Source of the DNA: an uncultured Candidatus Saccharimonas sp.
GTDB taxonomy: Bacteria > Patescibacteriota > Saccharimonadia > Saccharimonadales > Saccharimonadaceae
Length of the DNA stretch: 32,000 bases
NCBI GenBank assembly: GCA_963528875.1
Contig: CAURWT010000002.1
Location: 191,680-223,679, forward strand
Reading direction: 5' to 3'
Shown: positions 2,953 to 10,752 of the stretch, piece after piece
How positions within the stretch are numbered: the stretch's first letter is position 1
Layout of the letters: each line of letters starts with the position of its first letter
Program-made: the position numbers and the translations under genes
Notes under the pieces: model-generated
Told to the model about the DNA's origin: nothing
What the model saw: only the letters and a program-made list of their open reading frames with translations
Databases searched by the model: none

Positions 2953-3882
2953 CTATGAATTTACTTTATAGCTTAGTTTCATCATTTCTTTTGCAGTTTC
3001 TAATTGGTCGATACTATCTATTTTTATTTGATAACAGCCAGTAGCCCAATGTCCTTTTTTCGAAACATCTTCAATATCGAAATATATTTTTGGATCAAAA
3101 TCAGAACGTTCAATATTAAGATTTAAATATAGAGAGTTTTTCTGAACAATAATACTAAAAATATTTTTCTTTCTAACTTTAAAAGCCAAATACGTCTTCT
3201 TCACATCTGGTTGAATTTCTGGACTAATATTCTCAGCAAAATCTTTCAATTCCCAATAAAACTCCTGAATAGAATCCGAGCCTCTAGACACTAGTTCGTC
3301 TTCACTATAGTTGACAATTTCCTTGAGCACAGTTTTCTCGTCATTACTATTTTTTGCTATATTCGCTTGGCTTTTTTGACTTCTACCCTTTTTCATACCC
3401 TTTTGTAAGTACTCCACAATATCGCCATATTTCCTAAATTCATATAGTTCAACTGGGAAATTCTCGGTAGTATATTCGCTTGCTCTAAGCTGGTATTCAG
3501 TGAATTTTGGAGAAATAAGAATTACGCGCGACTGAGACCAATCGATTTCTGGTATTCCTCCTCCGTTTTTCTCAATAAATTTTAAAATAAAAGCTTCTTT
3601 ATTTTTCAACATCAACGATAAGTAAGCCAGACCTTGATCTGCAACAGAATCACTTTTAATTTTTTTATATTCAATGATTACAAAACTATTACTCTCATCG
3701 TCAAATGCCAAAGTATCTATCCGTAAATTGTCAACAGCAAACTCTGTTTCTATAAATCTTAACCCAAAAACCTCTTCAAGATTGTCTTCAGTCATTTTTT
3801 GAATATCTTTCTCAAGATATTTCTGAGAAACGTTCTCTTGTTTGATAGCTGTTAATTTTTCATTGTTCAATCTATAAAGCAT
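2953..3882 (-). CDS. Hypothetical protein with an N-terminal NucS/DUF91-like PD-(D/E)xK nuclease motif and a C-terminal DUF5655-like domain
   Basis: The ORF track gives 2953..3912 with a GTG start. I prefer the ATG at 3882 (MLYRL...), which is preceded by the SD GGAGAGGAG. The motif RIDTLAFDDESNSFVIIEYKKIKSDSVADQGLAYL fits the D..(D/E)xK..Q..Y pattern of NucS-like nucleases. The stop overlaps the ileS SD, so the two genes are co-transcribed. The domain names are recalled from memory, not searched. Confidence 0.6.
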   Translation of the reverse strand: MLYRLNNEKLTAIKQENVSQKYLEKDIQKMTEDNLEEVFGLRFIETEFAVDNLRIDTLAFDDESNSFVIIEYKKIKSDSVADQGLAYLSLMLKNKEAFILKFIEKNGGGIPEIDWSQSRVILISPKFTEYQLRASEYTTENFPVELYEFRKYGDIVEYLQKGMKKGRSQKSQANIAKNSNDEKTVLKEIVNYSEDELVSRGSDSIQEFYWELKDFAENISPEIQPDVKKTYLAFKVRKKNIFSIIVQKNSLYLNLNIERSDFDPKIYFDIEDVSKKGHWATGCYQIKIDSIDQLETAKEMMKLSYKVNS

Positions 3883-3903
3883 GTTTTTCTCCTCTCCTAA
3901 ATT

Positions 3904-4100
3904 AAAAATCACCTCTTTTAGACTCGAGAACCAAGCAAGCTCGGCGATACCATCTCGATTCCAAAAGAAGTGATTCTTTTAGCCCTTAATTTTAGCTTTC
4001 ACGGAGCTTTCCCGCCCAGTTCTAATCAGTTTTCGAAACCTTTCTTCTGGGAGCTTCGCGGTTGATAGCCGCTCATTCATCAAAATAAAACGCTTTTATG
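3904..4100 (-). promoter_or_regulatory. T-box-like riboswitch leader (Ile specifier AUC) upstream of the nuclease-like ORF and ileS
   Basis: Read on the minus strand. A GA/K-turn-like UGAUGAAUGA precedes the hairpin GCGG-CUAUCAA-CCGC, which carries AUC plus a purine in its loop (AUC = plus-strand 4064-4066). An F-box-like CCGUGA follows. The antiterminator-type element is UCGAGA / 7-nt bulge UGGUAUC / GCCGAG-CUUG-CUUGGU / UCUCGA (3958-3924). It is nested in an outer helix AUCACUUCUUUUGG / CUAAAAGAGGUGAU followed by UUUUU. Confidence 0.6.
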
Positions 4101-4106
4101 ATTTTT

Positions 4107-4135
4107 ATTTTATCAAAATTTAAAAATATTTTCAA
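4107..4135 (-). promoter_or_regulatory. Sigma70-type promoter for the T-box leader
   Basis: On the minus strand: TTGAAA (4135-4130), 17 nt, then TGaTAAAAT with the -10 hexamer at 4112-4107. Confidence 0.55.
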
Positions 4136-4309: not shown

Positions 4310-4347
4310 GTTGCCATATCCCTTAATAATTTAGAATATGACATAAT
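4310..4347 (+). repeat. Orphan degenerate CRISPR repeat
   Basis: The sequence gttgccatatcccttaataatttagaatatgacataat compares with the array repeat gttatagttccctaacaatttagaatatgatataat. The 3' 21 nt differ at two positions. The 5' part is diverged and carries a 1-2 nt indel. It lies 663 bp from repeat 1. Confidence 0.8.
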
Positions 4348-4364
4348 TACAGATGGATATAATA

Positions 4365-4391
4365 AAAATAGTGTAATATTTACACTATTTT
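4365..4391. terminator. Bidirectional hairpin terminator after the small-membrane-protein operon
   Basis: A perfect 12-bp palindrome, aaaatagtgtaa-tat-ttacactatttt. On the minus strand it is followed by TTATTAT. It overlaps the stop of the 76-aa ORF. Confidence 0.6.
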
Positions 4392-4615
4392 AAACTTTGA
4401 GAAACAAGAGATGGTATGGAAGATATAGAAAAATACACAATAATAGCTCCTATAATAGTGATTAGGAATTGAGTAACAACAATAAATGTTATAACATTAA
4501 CATTAGCTTGAATACTTCGTTGAATTTTATATTGAGCTTCTAAATAGTCCTTTTCGGTAAATTCATTTTTTTCTTGCATAAACAACTCCATTAAATTTTT
4601 ATATTTCTGAATCAT
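4385..4615 (-). CDS. Small hypothetical membrane protein (1 predicted TM)
   Basis: 76-aa ORF with a hydrophobic stretch VITFIVVTQFLITIIGAIIVYFSI. The start is uncertain. An internal ATG at 4579 has a GGAG SD 6 nt upstream. I recognise no homology. Confidence 0.45.
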   Translation of the reverse strand: MIQKYKNLMELFMQEKNEFTEKDYLEAQYKIQRSIQANVNVITFIVVTQFLITIIGAIIVYFSISSIPSLVSQSLK

Positions 4616-4970
4616 CAGTATAAGATTTAATTATACGTGATTTCCTGAAATAATAGTAAGGGATCTGTAGGGCAATAAAGAAAAGCCAAACAAATGAAGA
4701 ATTATTTTTTTGTGAATTATACATAAAAAACATAAGCACAAAAAAGAAAGATAGCCATAAAACATGTTTTCGCATTTTAGAAATTTCTTGGCGTATATCG
4801 TGCTTAAGTCGTTGTCTTAAAAGATTTCTTGTCTCAATCGCTAAAGCTTCTTTTTGAGTGTTTTCTTGATATGCATCTGAAGCTTTTCGCTGATTTTCTC
4901 TTGAAGCAAAACTTTTATTTTCTTCAATTTCAATATTATTGTTTAATGGCTCTATTATTTTCTTATCCAT
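4599..4970 (-). CDS. Small hypothetical membrane protein (2 predicted TM)
   Basis: The ORF track gives 4599..4985. The ATG at 4970 (MDKKII...) sits 6 nt downstream of a perfect TATAAT, so I prefer it. Hydrophobic segments are VLWLSFFFVLMFFM and FVWLFFIALQIPYYYF. The N-terminal half is charged. Confidence 0.5.
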   Translation of the reverse strand: MDKKIIEPLNNNIEIEENKSFASRENQRKASDAYQENTQKEALAIETRNLLRQRLKHDIRQEISKMRKHVLWLSFFFVLMFFMYNSQKNNSSFVWLFFIALQIPYYYFRKSRIIKSYTDDSEI

Positions 4971-4976
4971 AATTTC

Positions 4977-5005
4977 ATTATACATTAAGAATAAGCTTAT
5001 TTCAA
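4977..5005 (-). promoter_or_regulatory. Strong promoter for the small-membrane-protein operon, abutting CRISPR repeat 1
   Basis: On the minus strand: TTGAAA (5005-5000), 17 nt, TATAAT (4982-4977), then 6 nt to the ATG at 4970. The -35 box is 5 nt from repeat 1. Confidence 0.6.
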
Positions 5006-5010
5006 TAAAT

Positions 5011-5639
5011 GTTATAGTTCCCTAACAATTTAGAATATGATATAATAATGCCTTCGAAAATGTTTATCGAGAAAGAGTTATAGTTCCCTAACAATTTAGA
5101 ATATGATATAATAATGTATAAGAAACATGGTGTTATGTGTTAGTTATAGTTCCCTAACAATTTAGAATATGATATAATTTTAATACCAGTCTTAATTCCC
5201 ATATCTTGTTATAGTTCCCTAACAATTTAGAATATGATATAATTATATAAATTACCTAAATGCGGACTTGTTGGTTATAGTTCCCTAACAATTTAGAATA
5301 TGATATAATGAATTAGCCGTGAGATTATTTTGTTCAATTGTTATAGTTCCCTAACAATTTAGAATATGATATAATTGAATAGCGGCGAAAATAAACGTTA
5401 TTGAGGTTATAGTTCCCTAACAATTTAGAATATGATATAATCACGTTCATAACCATTGAATAGAGTAAATGGTTATAGTTCCCTAACAATTTAGAATATG
5501 ATATAATGCAAATATTATGGAAAACTCAAGCAAAAAAGTTATAGTTCCCTAACAATTTAGAATATGATATAATAAAATTTTCTTGAATTTTGATCGCATA
5601 CAGGTTATAGTTCCCTAACAATTTAGAATATGATATAAT
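5011..5639 (+). CRISPR. CRISPR array with 10 identical 36-nt repeats and 9 spacers (eight of 30 nt, one of 29 nt)
   Basis: The repeat GTTATAGTTCCCTAACAATTTAGAATATGATATAAT starts at 5011, 5077, 5143, 5208, 5274, 5340, 5406, 5472, 5538 and 5604. The plus orientation is chosen because the repeat starts GTT..., as type II repeats do, and ends in the extended -10 box TGATATAAT. Confidence 0.97.
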
Positions 5640-5646
5640 ACTTGCT

Positions 5647-5676
5647 AAAATCCCCATCTGTTGCGATGGGGTTTTT
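5647..5676. terminator. Bidirectional rho-independent terminator between the array and cas2
   Basis: The hairpin is aaaaTCCCCATC-tgttgc-GATGGGGttttt. There is a U-run on the plus strand and an A-run (U-run on the minus strand) on the other side. Confidence 0.75.
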
Positions 5677-5679
5677 AGT

Positions 5680-6003
5680 TTAAAAAAATGAAAGTTGATC
5701 ATTCGAAACACGCCTTTCTTGCGCAGTTTTTTTACCAGCAATCACATACATATTCGTAAATTGATGCTCTGTTAAATAAATTAGCCGAATCGAACCAACA
5801 TCTGGCGCATTTCTCTTAACACGATTCATATGTTTTTCGGCGGCATCCCTATTCGGGCAAAGCCTCGTGTAAACACTATACTGCAACATATTAAAACCAT
5901 CTTTTAGCAAGAAGTTTCGAAAACGTGTTGCTATTCTTCTTTCTTTTTTACTACCCGTAGGTAGATCAAAAAATACCGCTACTCTCATAAATTTATATGC
6001 CAT
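5680..6003 (-). CDS. cas2: CRISPR-associated endoribonuclease Cas2
   Basis: 107 aa. The N-terminus MRVAVFFDLPTGSKKERRIATRFRNFLLKDGFNMLQYSVY is a typical type II Cas2. An AGAGGAAAG SD is present. The gene is adjacent to cas1 and the array. Confidence 0.93.
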   Translation of the reverse strand: MAYKFMRVAVFFDLPTGSKKERRIATRFRNFLLKDGFNMLQYSVYTRLCPNRDAAEKHMNRVKRNAPDVGSIRLIYLTEHQFTNMYVIAGKKTAQERRVSNDQLSFF

Positions 6004-6038: not shown

Positions 6039-6923
6039 TTATATTTTTGGCAACTCTAGACTACTTGAATCTTTCTTTAAAATACAATCAACAAAACTTT
6101 CAACCGTAATCTCAATTGCATTTTTAATTGCGAATTTTTTACCCTTAATCTTAACCCGAAATTCTAAAACCTCAAGCAAAATCCGGCGTTCTTCTTTCGA
6201 AAGAGCCGAATCTTCTTTTTCGAACCCACTCAAACCAAATTTTTTAAGCACGAACAGGTCGATTAGAGGGCGATACGCTTCAATCAAGTCATCTGCTAAA
6301 TTAAAGCTATTTAGCTCATTATGATGAAAAATACCTTGCGAAACTACCAGCCCACGAGCCGCCAAATGCCGTGCCAACCCTGTGCGAACAAGCGCATAGC
6401 TGTAATTTAATGCCGAATTATACCACATTGGCCGACGACGGGTTGCGTCATCAAGAAGCTGTGAAAAGTAGTCGCGTGCGGCTAAAGACTCACGATTAGC
6501 GGAATCTCCAGATTTAACTTCACTTGCACATTTTCGAAGATATTCATCATTTAAGCCAAAATATTTTAAAACATCAGCCTGATTAGAAATTTTTCGAATA
6601 ATATTATTCTGCCAAATCTGTTTTTTGAGTGGAATCTTCATCTCAATTTGCTGGCGAGATACTTTAGCCTGCCGCGAATGTTGAGAATATGGTAAAACTA
6701 TGGCCGTAGGAAGATGCTTCTGATCACAAATCACAACGCTCACTGCTCGAGAAGAGAGCTCATTTAATAGATTTGTGGTTAAGTTTAAACCATAATTATC
6801 AATTATTAACGAGTCGATATCTTCAATCGGAATCGAAACGTCTTCTTCTTGCGAAATTAAGAGCCGGTTATTTTTAACGCTTAGTCGAGCGGGATTTTCG
6901 ATAGAAATAATGCGCCACGCCAT
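6039..6923 (-). CDS. cas1: CRISPR-associated endonuclease Cas1 (type II)
   Basis: The ORF track gives 6039..6932 with a GTG start. The ATG at 6923 overlaps the cas9 stop as TAATG, so I prefer it. Length (about 294 aa) and position between cas9 and cas2 fit a type II Cas1. Confidence 0.92.
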   Translation of the reverse strand: MAWRIISIENPARLSVKNNRLLISQEEDVSIPIEDIDSLIIDNYGLNLTTNLLNELSSRAVSVVICDQKHLPTAIVLPYSQHSRQAKVSRQQIEMKIPLKKQIWQNNIIRKISNQADVLKYFGLNDEYLRKCASEVKSGDSANRESLAARDYFSQLLDDATRRRPMWYNSALNYSYALVRTGLARHLAARGLVVSQGIFHHNELNSFNLADDLIEAYRPLIDLFVLKKFGLSGFEKEDSALSKEERRILLEVLEFRVKIKGKKFAIKNAIEITVESFVDCILKKDSSSLELPKI

Positions 6924-9900
6924 TAAATCCACCTATAATTATCGCCCAGAACGGAGATATCGTAGCGTTCAATTGAAGTTATTGTACCACCAGAAATTCT
7001 ATCAGTATTCTTCTTATCTGCTTTATCGTGACCTATTAAAGATATTCTACCACTATCTATATCATAGCCAACATAATAACCCTCAACAATCTTATTTCCT
7101 GCATAAATCCGCACATAATCATTTGGATACAACGAAAATTGCTTGACAAATCCATTTTCTTCAGTCGCAAAAATCTTACCTTTTTCATCGCGAATTTTAT
7201 TAAAATCGGCTTTTTCTGCCACACTTCGCCCATTTGGCGTTGGTAAAATTTCAACTTTTTTAGCATTCAACAGATGCGCATAAATTGGCGAAAAATAGTA
7301 TTCAAATTCGCCCTTGTAATTTTTGCGCTTAAACACATCCAACCGAATCGTATCACCGTTATTAACAAAAGCTTTACCTTTGTTAATTAAGAAACCGCTT
7401 TTTGAATTTTGCGTATCATAAACCTTAATTGAGCGAACAATATTACCGCGACCACCATTTTTTGTTGGTTTATAAACTGGGTTGCTTGGGTCGCCAAAAG
7501 CTTTTTCTGGTTTATTACCAAACTTATTTAATCGTGCTTTTAAGATCTCATATAAGGCTGGGTCCGTTTCACTAACTGGTGATTTTTTAAGTATTTCTAA
7601 TTTTACTTTTGTTAATCGGATTCGTTGTTTCCGTGCTATAGCCGGCTTTCCTTCCGAATCTACGTAACCTTCGACAATTTTCGGTGAACGGATCGTTTCT
7701 TCATTAATATTACCCTTTCCCGAGCGTTTTGGCATTCTTGAAACGAAAATAGGCGTTGTTCTATTTCGAAAATCTTCATCATAATTCTCAAGACCAATTA
7801 GTTCGTTGCGAAGCTCCATTGGCGATTCATAATGAGCAGTCCTTTTTCGAACTTCTTTTCCAAAATCTTTCCACGGTTCAATATCCTCAAAGGTCTGTTC
7901 AAAATCCGCTCGACTAAAAATTTCACCCGTTATTTTATCAATAACTTCATCTTCCGCCGAATATTTAAAAAGTTCAAAATATTTGTTCAGGCGTGAAATT
8001 TTTTGAATAACACTTTGGTCGATCGCAGCAATTATACAGGCATCCGTAGCGTGATGAAGGTTGTTTTCTTCGCGATCCTTTGAGCCCACACGCCAAATAC
8101 GGCGCAAATAAGAAGTTATTGAACCATTCGGCACAATCACTCGCTGAGCTGGATTTTCATTCTCAATTTTAGCAAATTTCAAATTCTTACGAAGATATTG
8201 GCTTAAGAACTTTGAAATATATCGCGTATCATTTAACGCACGGCTATTCCAATCTTCTTTTGGTGGAACTTTCGCAAGCAATCGTTCTTTCTTTCGAAAA
8301 GGAAGGTTCATTGAATTTATGCGTGCCTCAAAATCAGCCCATCGGCTTTCATTAGCACCCCAAGCTTCGAAAGGTGCTAAATTACCTTTTTGGCGGTTTT
8401 CTTCAGTGAAAACTAAAACTTTATTTATTAAGCTGTCATTTCCGCAGCGAGAGAATGGAATGATGTGATCAATTTCGGCATAATGCTCATTGGAAAATAG
8501 ATTTTCTAAAACAAGACTTTTTCCAGAATAAACGCATTTTCCGTTTTGTTGTTCATAAAGTTTAAATTTGGTAATTTGTAGGCCGGTTGGCGAAGGAACA
8601 TTAAACTCGTTTTGAAGTCGCTCTTTAATACTTTCGTTGTAACTGGCATTTGCTTTTTGAGTTTTTTTAATTTTTTCACGTTCTTTAAAATTTTTAGCTA
8701 AATCACCCGCAGCTTCAATTTTAATTTGATATGGTGCGCCATATTCTCTGATAATGGCATTTACAACTTTAACAGTCTGCGAAACCGCCCGTTTAACAAC
8801 AGGATTTGTAATTTGAGCTGATTCTTCTTTCGAAAGGGGCGGAAGCTTGTTTTTATCCCCGGAAAGCTGCTGTTTTGTATCGTAGCCTGCATTTTCTGAC
8901 GCATTACGATATGTATCACCTTTCAATAAAAATGGCAAGATTTTTCTAAGCGCCTTAAATGACAAATGGCCAAAACCGCTAACATTAATCATCATCAATG
9001 TTTCAACTGCATCTTTACTTAAATTAAGCTTCGAAATCTCTTTTCGCAAATTTTCATCATCTTTATTACATGAAAGAATTTCACCAAGTTCATCTAGCAT
9101 TCTATAATTATTGTCACAAACTTTTTGCCAATCTTCTGGAGTGTTTGAAAGAACAGCTTTAACCTTATGATAAAAAGAAAGTTCACCGAATTTATTTTCT
9201 TCACCGTTATTTTTGCTATCTTTTTTAATCTCGCCACGAATCATATTTGCTGGAAAGCTAAAGTTTTCATCTTTTTTATAACCTAAAACTTCACGGATGT
9301 GTTGATATTTCAGCGCTTTAATATCCTTAGCTTTTTCAATAACTTTTGAAATTTCTTCTTCCGTTAGACCGCGCTCCTTGTTGTTTATTACAACCCTTAA
9401 GTGCGCTAAGTTTTCTGCCAAACGAAACATCTCGAAACTATAACTCGCTTTTGGCGCACGAAATTCAGATTTCTCGAGACTACACTTTCCGCGCATTTTC
9501 ATAATTAATTCACTAGTTATAAATGGGCGTTGCGAAAAAATTCCGTTAAAATTACCTTCCTTTTCGTTTCCAAAAAGGAGAAAATTAATCTTTTCATCTG
9601 AAAGCTTCAAGCCAAATTCTTTTTGAATTTTTAAAATAAGCTTCGCTTCATCTTCGAAATTCGCCCGCACGAAAGAATTGCTGTAATCTTCAGCTTTATT
9701 CCTTTTGTGAGCTATAAATTTTTCATTCGAATTTAACGCACTAGCAACAGTTTTATACTCTTTGAGTAACTTCTCGTTTTTTGAAATTGCTGAAAGAACT
9801 TTCGAATTTTCTTTATCGTTTTCTTCGGCAGATTTTCGATTACTTTTATATCCACGATGTTTAGCAATGTGATATAAACCAACAAAGAGTTCCTCGTTCG

Positions 9901-10228
9901 AGATCTTCTCATTCAACGCCTTTTCTCGAATTTTATATGGATCAAGTTTATTTCCTGGCTTTAAAAGCTCTTCAATTTGTTCTTTAGCTAATAGATTATT
10001 ATCTCTGAAGAATCTTTTAATAAAATTTAACCGCTGACGGCGACGCTTCAATCTTCTTCTTGTTGAGCGAGCTGTTCGCCGAGCTTCAGACAGACTTTTA
10101 CCATCTTTCGGGTTTTCTGGTTTTTCGAAAATCCGAACGCCAACTTTTTCGATTCTTTTGTTATCTTCATCGATTATAGCCCAACCAATTGAGGTCGTAC
10201 CTATATCTAAACCTATTGAGTACTTCAT
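6923..10228 (-). CDS. cas9: Cas9, type II-C size class (1101 aa), with all catalytic motifs intact
   Basis: RuvC-I is MKYSIGLDIGTTSIGWAII. The Arg-rich bridge helix is RRTARSTRRRLKRRRQRL. RuvC-II is IKIEAAGDL. HNH is EIDHIIPFSRCGNDSLINKVLV..ENRQKGN. RuvC-III is HHATDACIIAAI. Confidence 0.97.
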   Translation of the reverse strand: MKYSIGLDIGTTSIGWAIIDEDNKRIEKVGVRIFEKPENPKDGKSLSEARRTARSTRRRLKRRRQRLNFIKRFFRDNNLLAKEQIEELLKPGNKLDPYKIREKALNEKISNEELFVGLYHIAKHRGYKSNRKSAEENDKENSKVLSAISKNEKLLKEYKTVASALNSNEKFIAHKRNKAEDYSNSFVRANFEDEAKLILKIQKEFGLKLSDEKINFLLFGNEKEGNFNGIFSQRPFITSELIMKMRGKCSLEKSEFRAPKASYSFEMFRLAENLAHLRVVINNKERGLTEEEISKVIEKAKDIKALKYQHIREVLGYKKDENFSFPANMIRGEIKKDSKNNGEENKFGELSFYHKVKAVLSNTPEDWQKVCDNNYRMLDELGEILSCNKDDENLRKEISKLNLSKDAVETLMMINVSGFGHLSFKALRKILPFLLKGDTYRNASENAGYDTKQQLSGDKNKLPPLSKEESAQITNPVVKRAVSQTVKVVNAIIREYGAPYQIKIEAAGDLAKNFKEREKIKKTQKANASYNESIKERLQNEFNVPSPTGLQITKFKLYEQQNGKCVYSGKSLVLENLFSNEHYAEIDHIIPFSRCGNDSLINKVLVFTEENRQKGNLAPFEAWGANESRWADFEARINSMNLPFRKKERLLAKVPPKEDWNSRALNDTRYISKFLSQYLRKNLKFAKIENENPAQRVIVPNGSITSYLRRIWRVGSKDREENNLHHATDACIIAAIDQSVIQKISRLNKYFELFKYSAEDEVIDKITGEIFSRADFEQTFEDIEPWKDFGKEVRKRTAHYESPMELRNELIGLENYDEDFRNRTTPIFVSRMPKRSGKGNINEETIRSPKIVEGYVDSEGKPAIARKQRIRLTKVKLEILKKSPVSETDPALYEILKARLNKFGNKPEKAFGDPSNPVYKPTKNGGRGNIVRSIKVYDTQNSKSGFLINKGKAFVNNGDTIRLDVFKRKNYKGEFEYYFSPIYAHLLNAKKVEILPTPNGRSVAEKADFNKIRDEKGKIFATEENGFVKQFSLYPNDYVRIYAGNKIVEGYYVGYDIDSGRISLIGHDKADKKNTDRISGGTITSIERYDISVLGDNYRWI

Positions 10229-10263: not shown

Positions 10264-10432
10264 TATAAAGATAATCCACCCTTTAAGGATGGATTAGAGC
10301 TTTGCCTTAGGTTCGATAATAGAACTCTCAACCGTAGCTACACAGTGCGAAACTGCTGCCCTTAGTTGCTAAGATTATTATAGAAACCTAACGATTTAGA
10401 ATATGATACAATCCTTACTTAAGGGACTGTCC
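10262..10432 (-). ncRNA. tracrRNA (predicted)
   Basis: Plus-strand 10377-10412 is a same-sense copy of the repeat (30/36 identical). A minus-strand transcript is therefore complementary to the crRNA repeat, with a 3-nt mismatch bubble at repeat positions 8-10. Downstream are a nexus-like hairpin CUUAG-CAA-CUAAG and a terminal hairpin AAUCCAUCC-UUAAA-GGGUGGAUU (10295-10273). That hairpin is fully paired only on the minus strand. The ends are estimates. Confidence 0.75.
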
Positions 10433-10500: not shown

Positions 10501-10752
10501 ATAGTATGCAGCTTCATCAATTAACGGTAAAGGTCGCCCGCGCCACATCTGCAAAAGTCGGCCATCGTCAGCAATCGCTAAGATTGTTGGATATTCAACG
10601 ATATCATAAGCTTGCAAGAAAAATTGATCCCTACTGCCATCTGGGTTCATTTGCTCAATTTCGAGCCCAGTTTGCCTTTCAAAATCATCAATATATTCTC
10701 GAACTTCACGGCCATGATCGCTAGCATCTCTATAAACTACTACAATTCTCAT
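10492..10752 (-). CDS. Small thioredoxin-fold-like protein without a CxxC motif (hypothetical)
   Basis: 86 aa. The pattern MRIVVVYRD...EYPTILAIADDG is beta-alpha-beta like, as in a glutaredoxin or thioredoxin fold. No cysteines are present. It overlaps the nrdR 3' end by 23 nt. Confidence 0.4.
   Translation of the reverse strand: MRIVVVYRDASDHGREVREYIDDFERQTGLEIEQMNPDGSRDQFFLQAYDIVEYPTILAIADDGRLLQMWRGRPLPLIDEAAYYAR

Follow-up and report, generated by a model that had tools for sequence, protein, structure and literature searches.

A degenerate CRISPR terminal repeat probably set apart from its type II-C array by a gene cassette of filamentous-phage origin in a Saccharibacterium

The stretch analysed here, hereafter the window, comprises 32,000 nucleotides (nt) of a contig from an uncultured Candidatus Saccharimonas sp. 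(CAURWT010000002.1) and contains a CRISPR array of 10 identical 36-nt repeats, GTTATAGTTCCCTAACAATTTAGAATATGATATAAT, with nine spacers (5011–5639, plus strand). A solitary diverged copy of the repeat, which we call the orphan, lies beyond the first repeat of the array at 4310–4347 on the plus strand (38 nt, GTTGCCATATCCCTTAATAATTTAGAATATGACATAAT). The 663 bp between them (4348–5010) carry two small open reading frames (ORFs) on the minus strand, ORF-A and ORF-B, with an annotated extent of 4385–4985. The positions and the gap agree with the initial annotation of this DNA, which offered three readings of the arrangement: an insertion that detached the array's old end, a toxin or abortive-infection-like module embedded in the locus, or a regulatory pseudo-repeat RNA. 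Coordinates are window positions unless a contig is named; the contigs and phage loci compared carry L-numbers, and L006 is the window's own contig. A degenerate 27-nt pattern of the repeat matches the 10 repeats, the orphan (with zero mismatches) and the anti-repeat at 10386–10412, with 0 matches expected from 100 shuffles. The divergence of the orphan is concentrated in its outer 5' half, and the promoter-like sequence already noted in it, TGACATAAT, is indeed retained at its 3' end.

The array is followed by an intrinsic terminator past the last repeat (5652–5671, plus strand, consensus scan) and by three cas genes on the minus strand, identified with Pfam: cas2 (5680–6003, CRISPR_Cas2), cas1 (6039–6932, Cas_Cas1), and cas9 (6923–10228, 1,101 aa, matching HNH_4, RuvC_III, Cas9_RuvC, and Cas9_a). 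From the sequence, we placed the gene of the trans-activating CRISPR RNA (tracrRNA) on the same strand at about 10265–10432, or up to 10466 with its promoter. It has a TTGACA...TATACT promoter (about 10466–10438), an anti-repeat (10412–10377), and a terminator hairpin (near 10290–10265), and the duplex between repeat and anti-repeat is predicted at −34.6 kcal/mol (ViennaRNA). Neither csn2 nor cas4 was found at the locus by reading of the ORFs and Pfam searches. Because the locus has only cas9, cas1, and cas2, and an extended −10 element, TGATATAAT, closes every repeat of the array, we class it as a minimal type II-C CRISPR-Cas system. Its CRISPR RNAs (crRNAs) would be plus-strand transcripts started by the promoter that each repeat contains.

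The DNA between the orphan and the array is a complete transcription unit on the minus strand. Its promoter, TTGAAA-17-TATAAT (4977–5005), was recovered by consensus scan as it had been described: it matches the consensus at 11 of 12 positions, with the −10 at 4982–4977 and the −35 at 5005–5000, 5 nt from repeat 1. The hairpin terminator reported at the other end was found by folding with ViennaRNA (4365–4391), and consists of a perfect 12-bp stem with a 3-nt loop (−10.6 kcal/mol) followed on the minus strand by the T-run TTTTTATTAT; its G-C pairs are too few for the consensus scan, which did not pick it up. The cassette would thus be expressed autonomously from its own promoter. The hairpin also faces the promoter embedded in the orphan, which would fire about 10 nt before a terminator, so that no crRNA could be made from it.

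Homologues helped to fix the starts of the two genes. We found 40 homologues of ORF-A, at 42–97% identity, and those that are N-terminally complete begin at the equivalent of the second ATG, at 4970, except for forms of 128–145 aa that start further upstream. ORF-A was accordingly set at 4599–4970 (123 aa; annotated form 4599–4985, 128 aa). ORF-B was set at 4385–4579 (64 aa; annotated form 4385–4615, 76 aa), starting at the ATG at 4579, where the N-terminus MQEKNEFTEKDYLEAQYKIQRSIQ is conserved and a GGAG stands at 4586–4589; it has 61–64 aa in relatives and phages. Both ORFs and their strand are thus as first described, and the overlap then attributed to them disappears with the new starts. 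The −10 element lies within the first codons of the annotated ORF-A and ends 7 nt before the ATG at 4970, so that the mRNA of ORF-A is probably leaderless. In a hydropathy scan, ORF-B shows one clear hydrophobic, transmembrane (TM) segment, as previously counted. The two TM segments assigned to ORF-A depend on its structural model: some 75 hydrophilic N-terminal residues precede a helical hairpin, which in the AlphaFold2 model of the 128-aa form has helices at 29–91 and 98–123 (pLDDT 68). We read this predicted hairpin as two TM segments; in the hydropathy window scan, the first hydrophobic stretch alone is flagged. The ratio dN/dS of ORF-A is 0.05–0.2, both among chromosomal copies and between chromosome and phage, which indicates purifying selection. 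Neither ORF had a match above threshold in Pfam, PHROGs, or PADLOC (the sole Pfam match, T6PP_N, scored 17 bits, under its cut-off). A profile search of ORF-A against 1.84 billion representatives returned 13 clusters, all of the same narrow family, and Foldseek of its model against viral structures gave nothing informative (best E 0.8). The remote homology searches and structure prediction that had been proposed for these proteins were therefore uninformative on their function.

A scan of metagenome contigs for the repeat revealed two relatives without the cassette, L024 and L034, both cas-positive. Their loci consist of the gene of isoleucyl-tRNA synthetase (IleRS), the same flank as in the window (...ctttaaagcttaatt), a terminal repeat GTTGCCATGTCCCTTAA[T/C]AATTTAGAATATGATATAAT, a 30-nt spacer, the remaining array, and cas2-cas1-cas9; ORF-A and ORF-B are absent. 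The terminal repeat differs from the window's orphan at 2–3 of 38 positions. It is contiguous with its array at normal spacer distance, whereas 663 bp intervene in the window (688–690 bp in the other haplotype of the cassette, described below). Because the same sequence and left flank end uninterrupted arrays in L024 and L034, the orphan is, by this comparison, the ordinary degenerate terminal repeat (DRt) of a type II-C array, which means that the 663 bp fill the slot of the last spacer. Like the DRt at the trailer ends of other CRISPR arrays, it has diverged from the repeat, lies opposite the end of acquisition, and is worst preserved in its outer half. It differs from them in sitting 663 bp off its array, because phage DNA occupies the last spacer slot. 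The orphan would now be a decaying relic: between haplotypes it differs at 7–11 of 38 positions, more than the adjoining intergenic DNA, a comparison that is only indicative, as that DNA has constraints of its own from a T-box-like leader.

The phage origin of the cassette emerges from the distribution of ORF-A. Contigs with ORF-A show only two contexts: the chromosomal site beside the array, with or without cas genes, or the end of an integrated element of about 5.5 kb, at the MurG/DUF3048 site. The element follows MurG and a 292-aa gene, and continues with ORFs of 77, 58, 45, about 400, 54, 246, and 104 aa, Rep, ORF-A, and sometimes ORF-B; past this cargo come DUF3048, in most prophage loci, and then SmpB where the contig reaches that far. 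The 246-aa protein is a Zot-like ATPase (a weak match to PF05707, with 22.1 bits for a cut-off of 20.3, and phrog_197 with E 2.6e-7), and Rep is a rolling-circle initiator (PF23343; phrog_3419). Together with the small proteins of 45–77 aa and the length of 5.5 kb between direct repeats, this gene content identifies the element as an inovirus-like (filamentous) prophage, and IMG/VR holds seven contigs of its type. The prophage is flanked by a direct repeat of 15–25 bp, GATATATTGTGCGAC, the presumed att core (in L012 at 5198–5225 and 10702–10729, in L017 at about 7165–7192). This core lies inside a 28-bp site, ATGTCGTAAAA-GATATA-TTGTGCGACAC, with an 11-6-11 layout and 8 of 11 arm positions palindromic. 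We saw no integrase gene in the prophage, which together with this layout suggests Xer-type integration at a dif-like site. No copy of the prophage was found in the window, from which the 15-bp core of the direct repeat is also absent.

ORF-A and ORF-B are missing from several of these phages (L041, L045, L036–L039), and are therefore accessory cargo and not core phage machinery. An alternative cargo, a TM-anchored DUF2726 protein, occurs at the same slot behind the same promoter and palindrome. In L045 (473–976), L018 (6822–7325), and L041 (6994–7521) this cargo has 167–175 aa, with an N-terminal TM helix and a domain of restriction-endonuclease-like fold (PF10881, 84 bits). A second, diverged copy of ORF-A (about 65% identity) is found in L046 (7838–8697) and also in L005, L017, and L019; it is preceded by the 77-aa phage gene, adjoins DUF3048 beside the prophage, and resembles what an earlier or tandem prophage would leave behind.

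The homology between window and phages fits the interval between the two repeats closely. It begins at the very base that abuts repeat 1 (5010), in L004 as well as in L012, where blastn gives 87% identity from window position 5010 to 4454. In phages L017 and L043 it extends over both ORFs and the terminator to about 4349–4351, 1–3 nt from the orphan: some 15 nt past the terminator still match both, and L017 has the same hairpin after ORF-B. In L017, L043, and L044, the direct repeat flanking the prophage starts at this endpoint. At the other end, the cassette promoter and a palindrome, CTTATTTCAAT-TT-ATTGAAATAAG, belong to the phage backbone and are found in 15 phage loci. The palindrome (24 bp, in the region 9934–10000 of L012) overlaps the −35 of the cargo promoter and shows compensatory changes between phages (CTTATTTCAAT/ATTGAAATAAG versus CCTATTTCAAC/GTTGAAATAGG), and window positions 4986–5010 keep only one of its arms, the right half. 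Its function may be that of an operator or of a single-strand origin hairpin. On these alignments, the 663 bp are a transcription unit derived from a phage of about 5.5 kb, inovirus-like, of the same population.

The polarity of the array can be deduced from its spacers. Five independent inovirus protospacers have a 3' protospacer-adjacent motif (PAM), NNNRCC, only if the spacers are taken in the plus-strand orientation, and none has a 5' motif, so that crRNAs would be read from the plus strand, running towards cas2. Two arrays, L023 and L028, have the cassette-proximal spacers s23 and s24 in common and differ at the cas2 end; variant repeats are grouped at the cassette end of the arrays. New spacers thus appear to enter at the cas2 end, which makes the end near 5011 the oldest and places the orphan beyond it. 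Together with the contiguous terminal repeat of L024 and L034, this bears out the suggestion that an insertion broke off the old end of the array. In published type II-C arrays, new spacers are added at the 3' end, consistent with the polarity inferred here. The systems of Neisseria meningitidis and Campylobacter jejuni also have minimal cas9-cas1-cas2, repeats ending in an extended −10, crRNA transcription towards cas2, and acquisition at the 3' end of the array. They differ from the present one in that its host is a Saccharibacterium, in whose population the Cas9 alleles appear to differ in PAM.

The donor phage is also heavily targeted by these arrays. Among the 115 distinct spacers from the arrays of the window, L020, L024, L025, L027, L028, L029, and L034, 26 (23%) match the inovirus with at most five mismatches, several of them perfectly; in the window, the spacers at 5376–5405 and 5442–5471 match it with three and four mismatches over the full 30 nt. 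None of the 26 targets ORF-A or ORF-B. Such spacers would be self-targeting, given the chromosomal copy. The PAM read from protospacers in L004, L012–L019, and L022 seems to vary with the Cas9 allele: NNNRCC for the window and L020, about NNNNGTA for L034, and about NNRRAA for L025 and L029. Over Cas9 residues 1000–1100, the identity to the window is 97% in L020, 89% in L034, and 78% in L027. The Cas9 alleles of the population thus appear to use different PAMs. With the large share of its spacers directed at this target, its variation in PAM, and its repeated loss of cas genes, the population is in intense conflict with one small family of inoviruses.

We consider it very likely, taking these results together, that the orphan is a DRt, that the cassette is a phage-derived unit lodged in the slot of the oldest spacer, and that neither belongs to the CRISPR machinery. 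What is then unusual is only the manner in which the fragment entered the slot, which would have required a site-precise event at the borders of the repeats. The slack on the array side is 0 nt at repeat 1 and 1–3 nt at the terminal repeat, and the ends on the phage side are two landmarks, the conserved palindrome near Rep and the point at which the prophage's flanking direct repeat begins. Such ends point to processing of phage DNA, and the palindrome by the Rep gene may be an origin or a nick site. Other routes were considered and rejected. PAM-guided acquisition or capture through spacer homology does not agree with the phage flanks of the cassette ends, which are unlike NNNRCC or, by reading, the other PAM variants. 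Use of the repeat as a pseudo-att site is not supported either: the best match between the 28-bp site and the repeat was 13 of 19–28 positions, for a mean of 12.2 and a 95th percentile of 15 in shuffles. An 8-nt match between the oldest spacer of L024 and the cassette end was judged, by our own estimate, to be due to chance. Spacer s47 of L024 comes from the part of the phage in which the flanking direct repeat lies. No viral contig carries the CRISPR repeat, and no array that we examined has a whole prophage between split repeats, only the 0.66-kb unit. In a second haplotype (L001, at about 8645–8663, L020, and L023), 19 additional nt, AATTATGTTGTAATACCTG, stand between cassette and orphan. 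They are bounded by ATTATGT direct repeats and weakly resemble the direct repeat flanking the phage (10 of 17 positions); the junction of the window looks like a deletion between the ATTATGT repeats.

The closest precedent is the prophage PhiAP1.1 of Streptococcus pyogenes, which integrates into type II-A CRISPR repeats and can, when integrating across different repeats, delete the intervening spacer (Varble et al., bioRxiv 10.1101/2020.10.09.333658). There too, a Cas9 array harbours phage DNA, in many cases at its degenerate terminal repeat. What integrates there is an entire cos-type prophage, with 8 bp of its attP in common with the repeat, whereas the present insert is a 0.66-kb fragment of an inovirus without integrase; its junctions are at the borders of repeats and not within one, and the direct repeat flanking the inovirus is unlike the CRISPR repeat. 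The locus would thus add to the natural instances of phage DNA inside Cas9 arrays one from outside Streptococcus, distinguished by a Saccharibacterium host with a type II-C system, a filamentous phage, and an insert that is an entire gene unit and fits the slot of a spacer.

Several other explanations of the locus deserve consideration. The two membrane proteins could form an accessory or abortive-infection module acting together with Cas9, as the initial annotation had contemplated in proposing a toxin-like module tied to the type II system. The cassette adjoins the array in every chromosomal copy outside the prophage site, has a strong promoter of its own, and encodes a protein under purifying selection. 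Its association with cas genes is however not consistent across genomes. At least five strains (contigs L001–L003, L008, L021, and L031–L033) keep cassette and orphan and lack cas9, cas1, cas2, and tracrRNA, and the cas-positive L024 and L034 have no cassette. The cassette is inovirus cargo in at least 15 phage loci, at an unrelated site and in viral contigs, and has no match in PADLOC. These patterns of presence and absence, which indicate that the cassette is independent of cas genes, largely refute this explanation, to which we give almost no credence. The comparison of relatives that had been proposed to see whether the cassette is always next to the array thus has a negative answer. It had also been anticipated that finding the two ORFs at unrelated loci without CRISPR association, with the orphan untranscribed, would reduce the locus to a decayed array end; the part on the ORFs was found to hold, at the prophage site and in the IMG/VR contigs. 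For annotation, this removes a false lead, since the proteins would not be membrane accessories of a type II system and the orphan would not be a new regulatory RNA. A functional RNA from the orphan would be either a plus-strand guide similar to a crRNA or to the small CRISPR/Cas-associated RNA (scaRNA), or a second anti-repeat on the minus strand, made by read-through of the ORF-B terminator and pairing with pre-crRNA. Antisense orphan indeed pairs with the crRNA repeat at −32.6 kcal/mol in the window, near the −34.6 of the true anti-repeat, and its 3' extended −10 is relatively well kept. This pairing weakens to −25.7 and −22.1 kcal/mol in other haplotypes, which differ at many positions of the orphan, and the 12-bp terminator separates ORF-B from it. 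On the plus strand, a consensus scan found no promoter upstream of the orphan, and its duplex with the tracrRNA anti-repeat reaches only −20.9 kcal/mol (ViennaRNA), with loss of the guide-proximal stem. Local alignment of its minus-strand flank to the tracrRNA body revealed no significant scaffold (174 of 500 shuffles scored as high). Since the same element is a normal terminal repeat in alleles without the cassette, we regard the regulatory RNA suggested initially as extremely unlikely. Regulatory RNAs with degenerate repeats are known in type II systems, as the scaRNA of Francisella and the long-form tracrRNA. The orphan is likewise a solitary diverged repeat beside a Cas9 locus; unlike them, it has no upstream promoter or guide-like segment that we could find, pairs poorly with the tracrRNA where pairing is needed, and decays between strains.

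The direction of transfer could also be the reverse, with an old chromosomal gene pair beside the array captured by the phage from its host. Phages do capture host genes, and the pair is accessory in this phage family, being missing from the six phages named above. Yet the promoter and palindrome are phage backbone, with compensatory changes before a different cargo, and in the phages the terminator runs into the direct repeat flanking the prophage. Moreover, the chromosomal homology ends at two CRISPR repeats of which no phage has remnants, and the phage copies are more diverse (65–92% identity). Capture from the host is thus very unlikely. Regarding mechanism, the fragment could have been integrated by Cas1-Cas2 as an oversized spacer, and not by phage Rep/Xer or host recombination. 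It replaces exactly one spacer, with the minimal slack described above, it lies in the oldest slot, where a very early acquisition would be expected, and its donor is the main target of the array. Against this, the phage sequences at the two ends (tgaaat and atttac) do not conform to the PAM NNNRCC, both ends coincide with landmarks of the phage, the repeats on either side are no duplicates of one another, the outer one being the pre-existing DRt, and the second haplotype has its 19 extra nt at the junction. Integration of this kind is in our view unlikely, and we attach only a small probability to the corresponding claim that a functional phage operon of 0.66 kb was inserted into the array as a spacer would be, in place of the oldest one. 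If the slot-precise insertion was integrase-mediated, it would bear on the reach of Cas1-Cas2 as a gene-capture machine: acting alone or on ends made by Rep/Xer, it could occasionally allow arrays to capture whole genes, and captured phage genes could add immunity at the level of the receptor or membrane against the array's own target phage. Some observations weigh against our preferred account of a phage-derived cassette beside a relic repeat. One is the placement within 0–3 nt of both repeat borders. The two kinds of alleles may be read as insertion into an array without cassette or as deletion of the cassette by recombination between repeats, and the identity of the flanking genes (90–97% for all alleles) does not separate them. 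The 11 nt at the 3' end of the orphan, with the extended −10, are better kept than the rest (1–2 of 11 changed, for 6–10 of 27 elsewhere), so that a residual promoter role is conceivable. Purifying selection on ORF-A may reflect selection that acted in the phage, with later gene flow to the copy on the chromosome. Frameshifts interrupt ORF-A in L023/L026 (10016–10385) and in L032 (28–385), and the cassette is therefore dispensable in some strains. Finally, no homology supports a function for either ORF in any of the searches described above. Aberrant C-termini were also seen in the protein clusters P0015 and P0040.

We tentatively suggest that the cassette is kept for its role in the phage, which could be that of a membrane accessory, for example in excluding superinfection by related filamentous phages. 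Reasons to favour such a role are that the pair lies in an accessory slot, has its own promoter, and has a membrane location; an addiction or toxin-like function is the main alternative to it. A precedent is PfsE of the Pf phages, a small inner-membrane protein of a filamentous prophage that mediates superinfection exclusion (PMC8764522). The accessory genes of this type in inoviruses likewise encode small inner-membrane proteins, are non-essential in their phage family, and have their own expression signals. ORF-A and ORF-B differ from PfsE in lacking sequence or fold similarity to it and in occurring as a pair outside a prophage, and an exclusion role is here a guess.

The cas-less relatives show how the rest of the locus was lost. 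In L033 (about 748–880) and in the mini-array of L021 (window equivalents 5011–5046 and 10377–10432), the last repeat is a hybrid with a CRISPR-like 5' end and an anti-repeat-like end, GATACAAT, followed directly by the 5' leader of the tracrRNA (ccttacttaagggactgtc). In these strains, cas2, cas1, cas9, and the body of the tracrRNA were therefore deleted by recombination between CRISPR repeat and anti-repeat, which are direct repeats. A different junction is found in L001, L008, L031, and L032, where, between ORF-A and the 86-aa gene that, in the window, opens a minus-strand series with NrdR and FtsZ from 10492 onward, the repeat continues into tatttttaataatatataatgctaaaatcgag and then the tracrRNA promoter. 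The cas genes were therefore lost at least twice, and both cassette haplotypes include cas-positive and cas-less states. The cas-less mini-arrays of L008, L021, L031, L032, and L033 have in common one odd 34-nt spacer, ATAAGTGGCTCCAGCTTCGGCTGGAGTACTATTT, with a 7-bp stem and a TTCG loop, which is duplicated in L021.

On its other side, the orphan is neighboured by two minus-strand genes identified by sequence reading, those of a DUF5655 protein (2953–3912) and of IleRS (47–2944). Searches of the region against Rfam gave only a spurious miRNA match on the hairpin and a match to the T-box leader at 3923–4089 (minus strand; 33 bits, E 3.8e-5, under the gathering score of 93). A promoter-like site at 4135–4107 on the same strand lies upstream of the DUF5655-IleRS pair with this match, and such a T-box-like leader may be behind the good conservation of the orphan's left flank.

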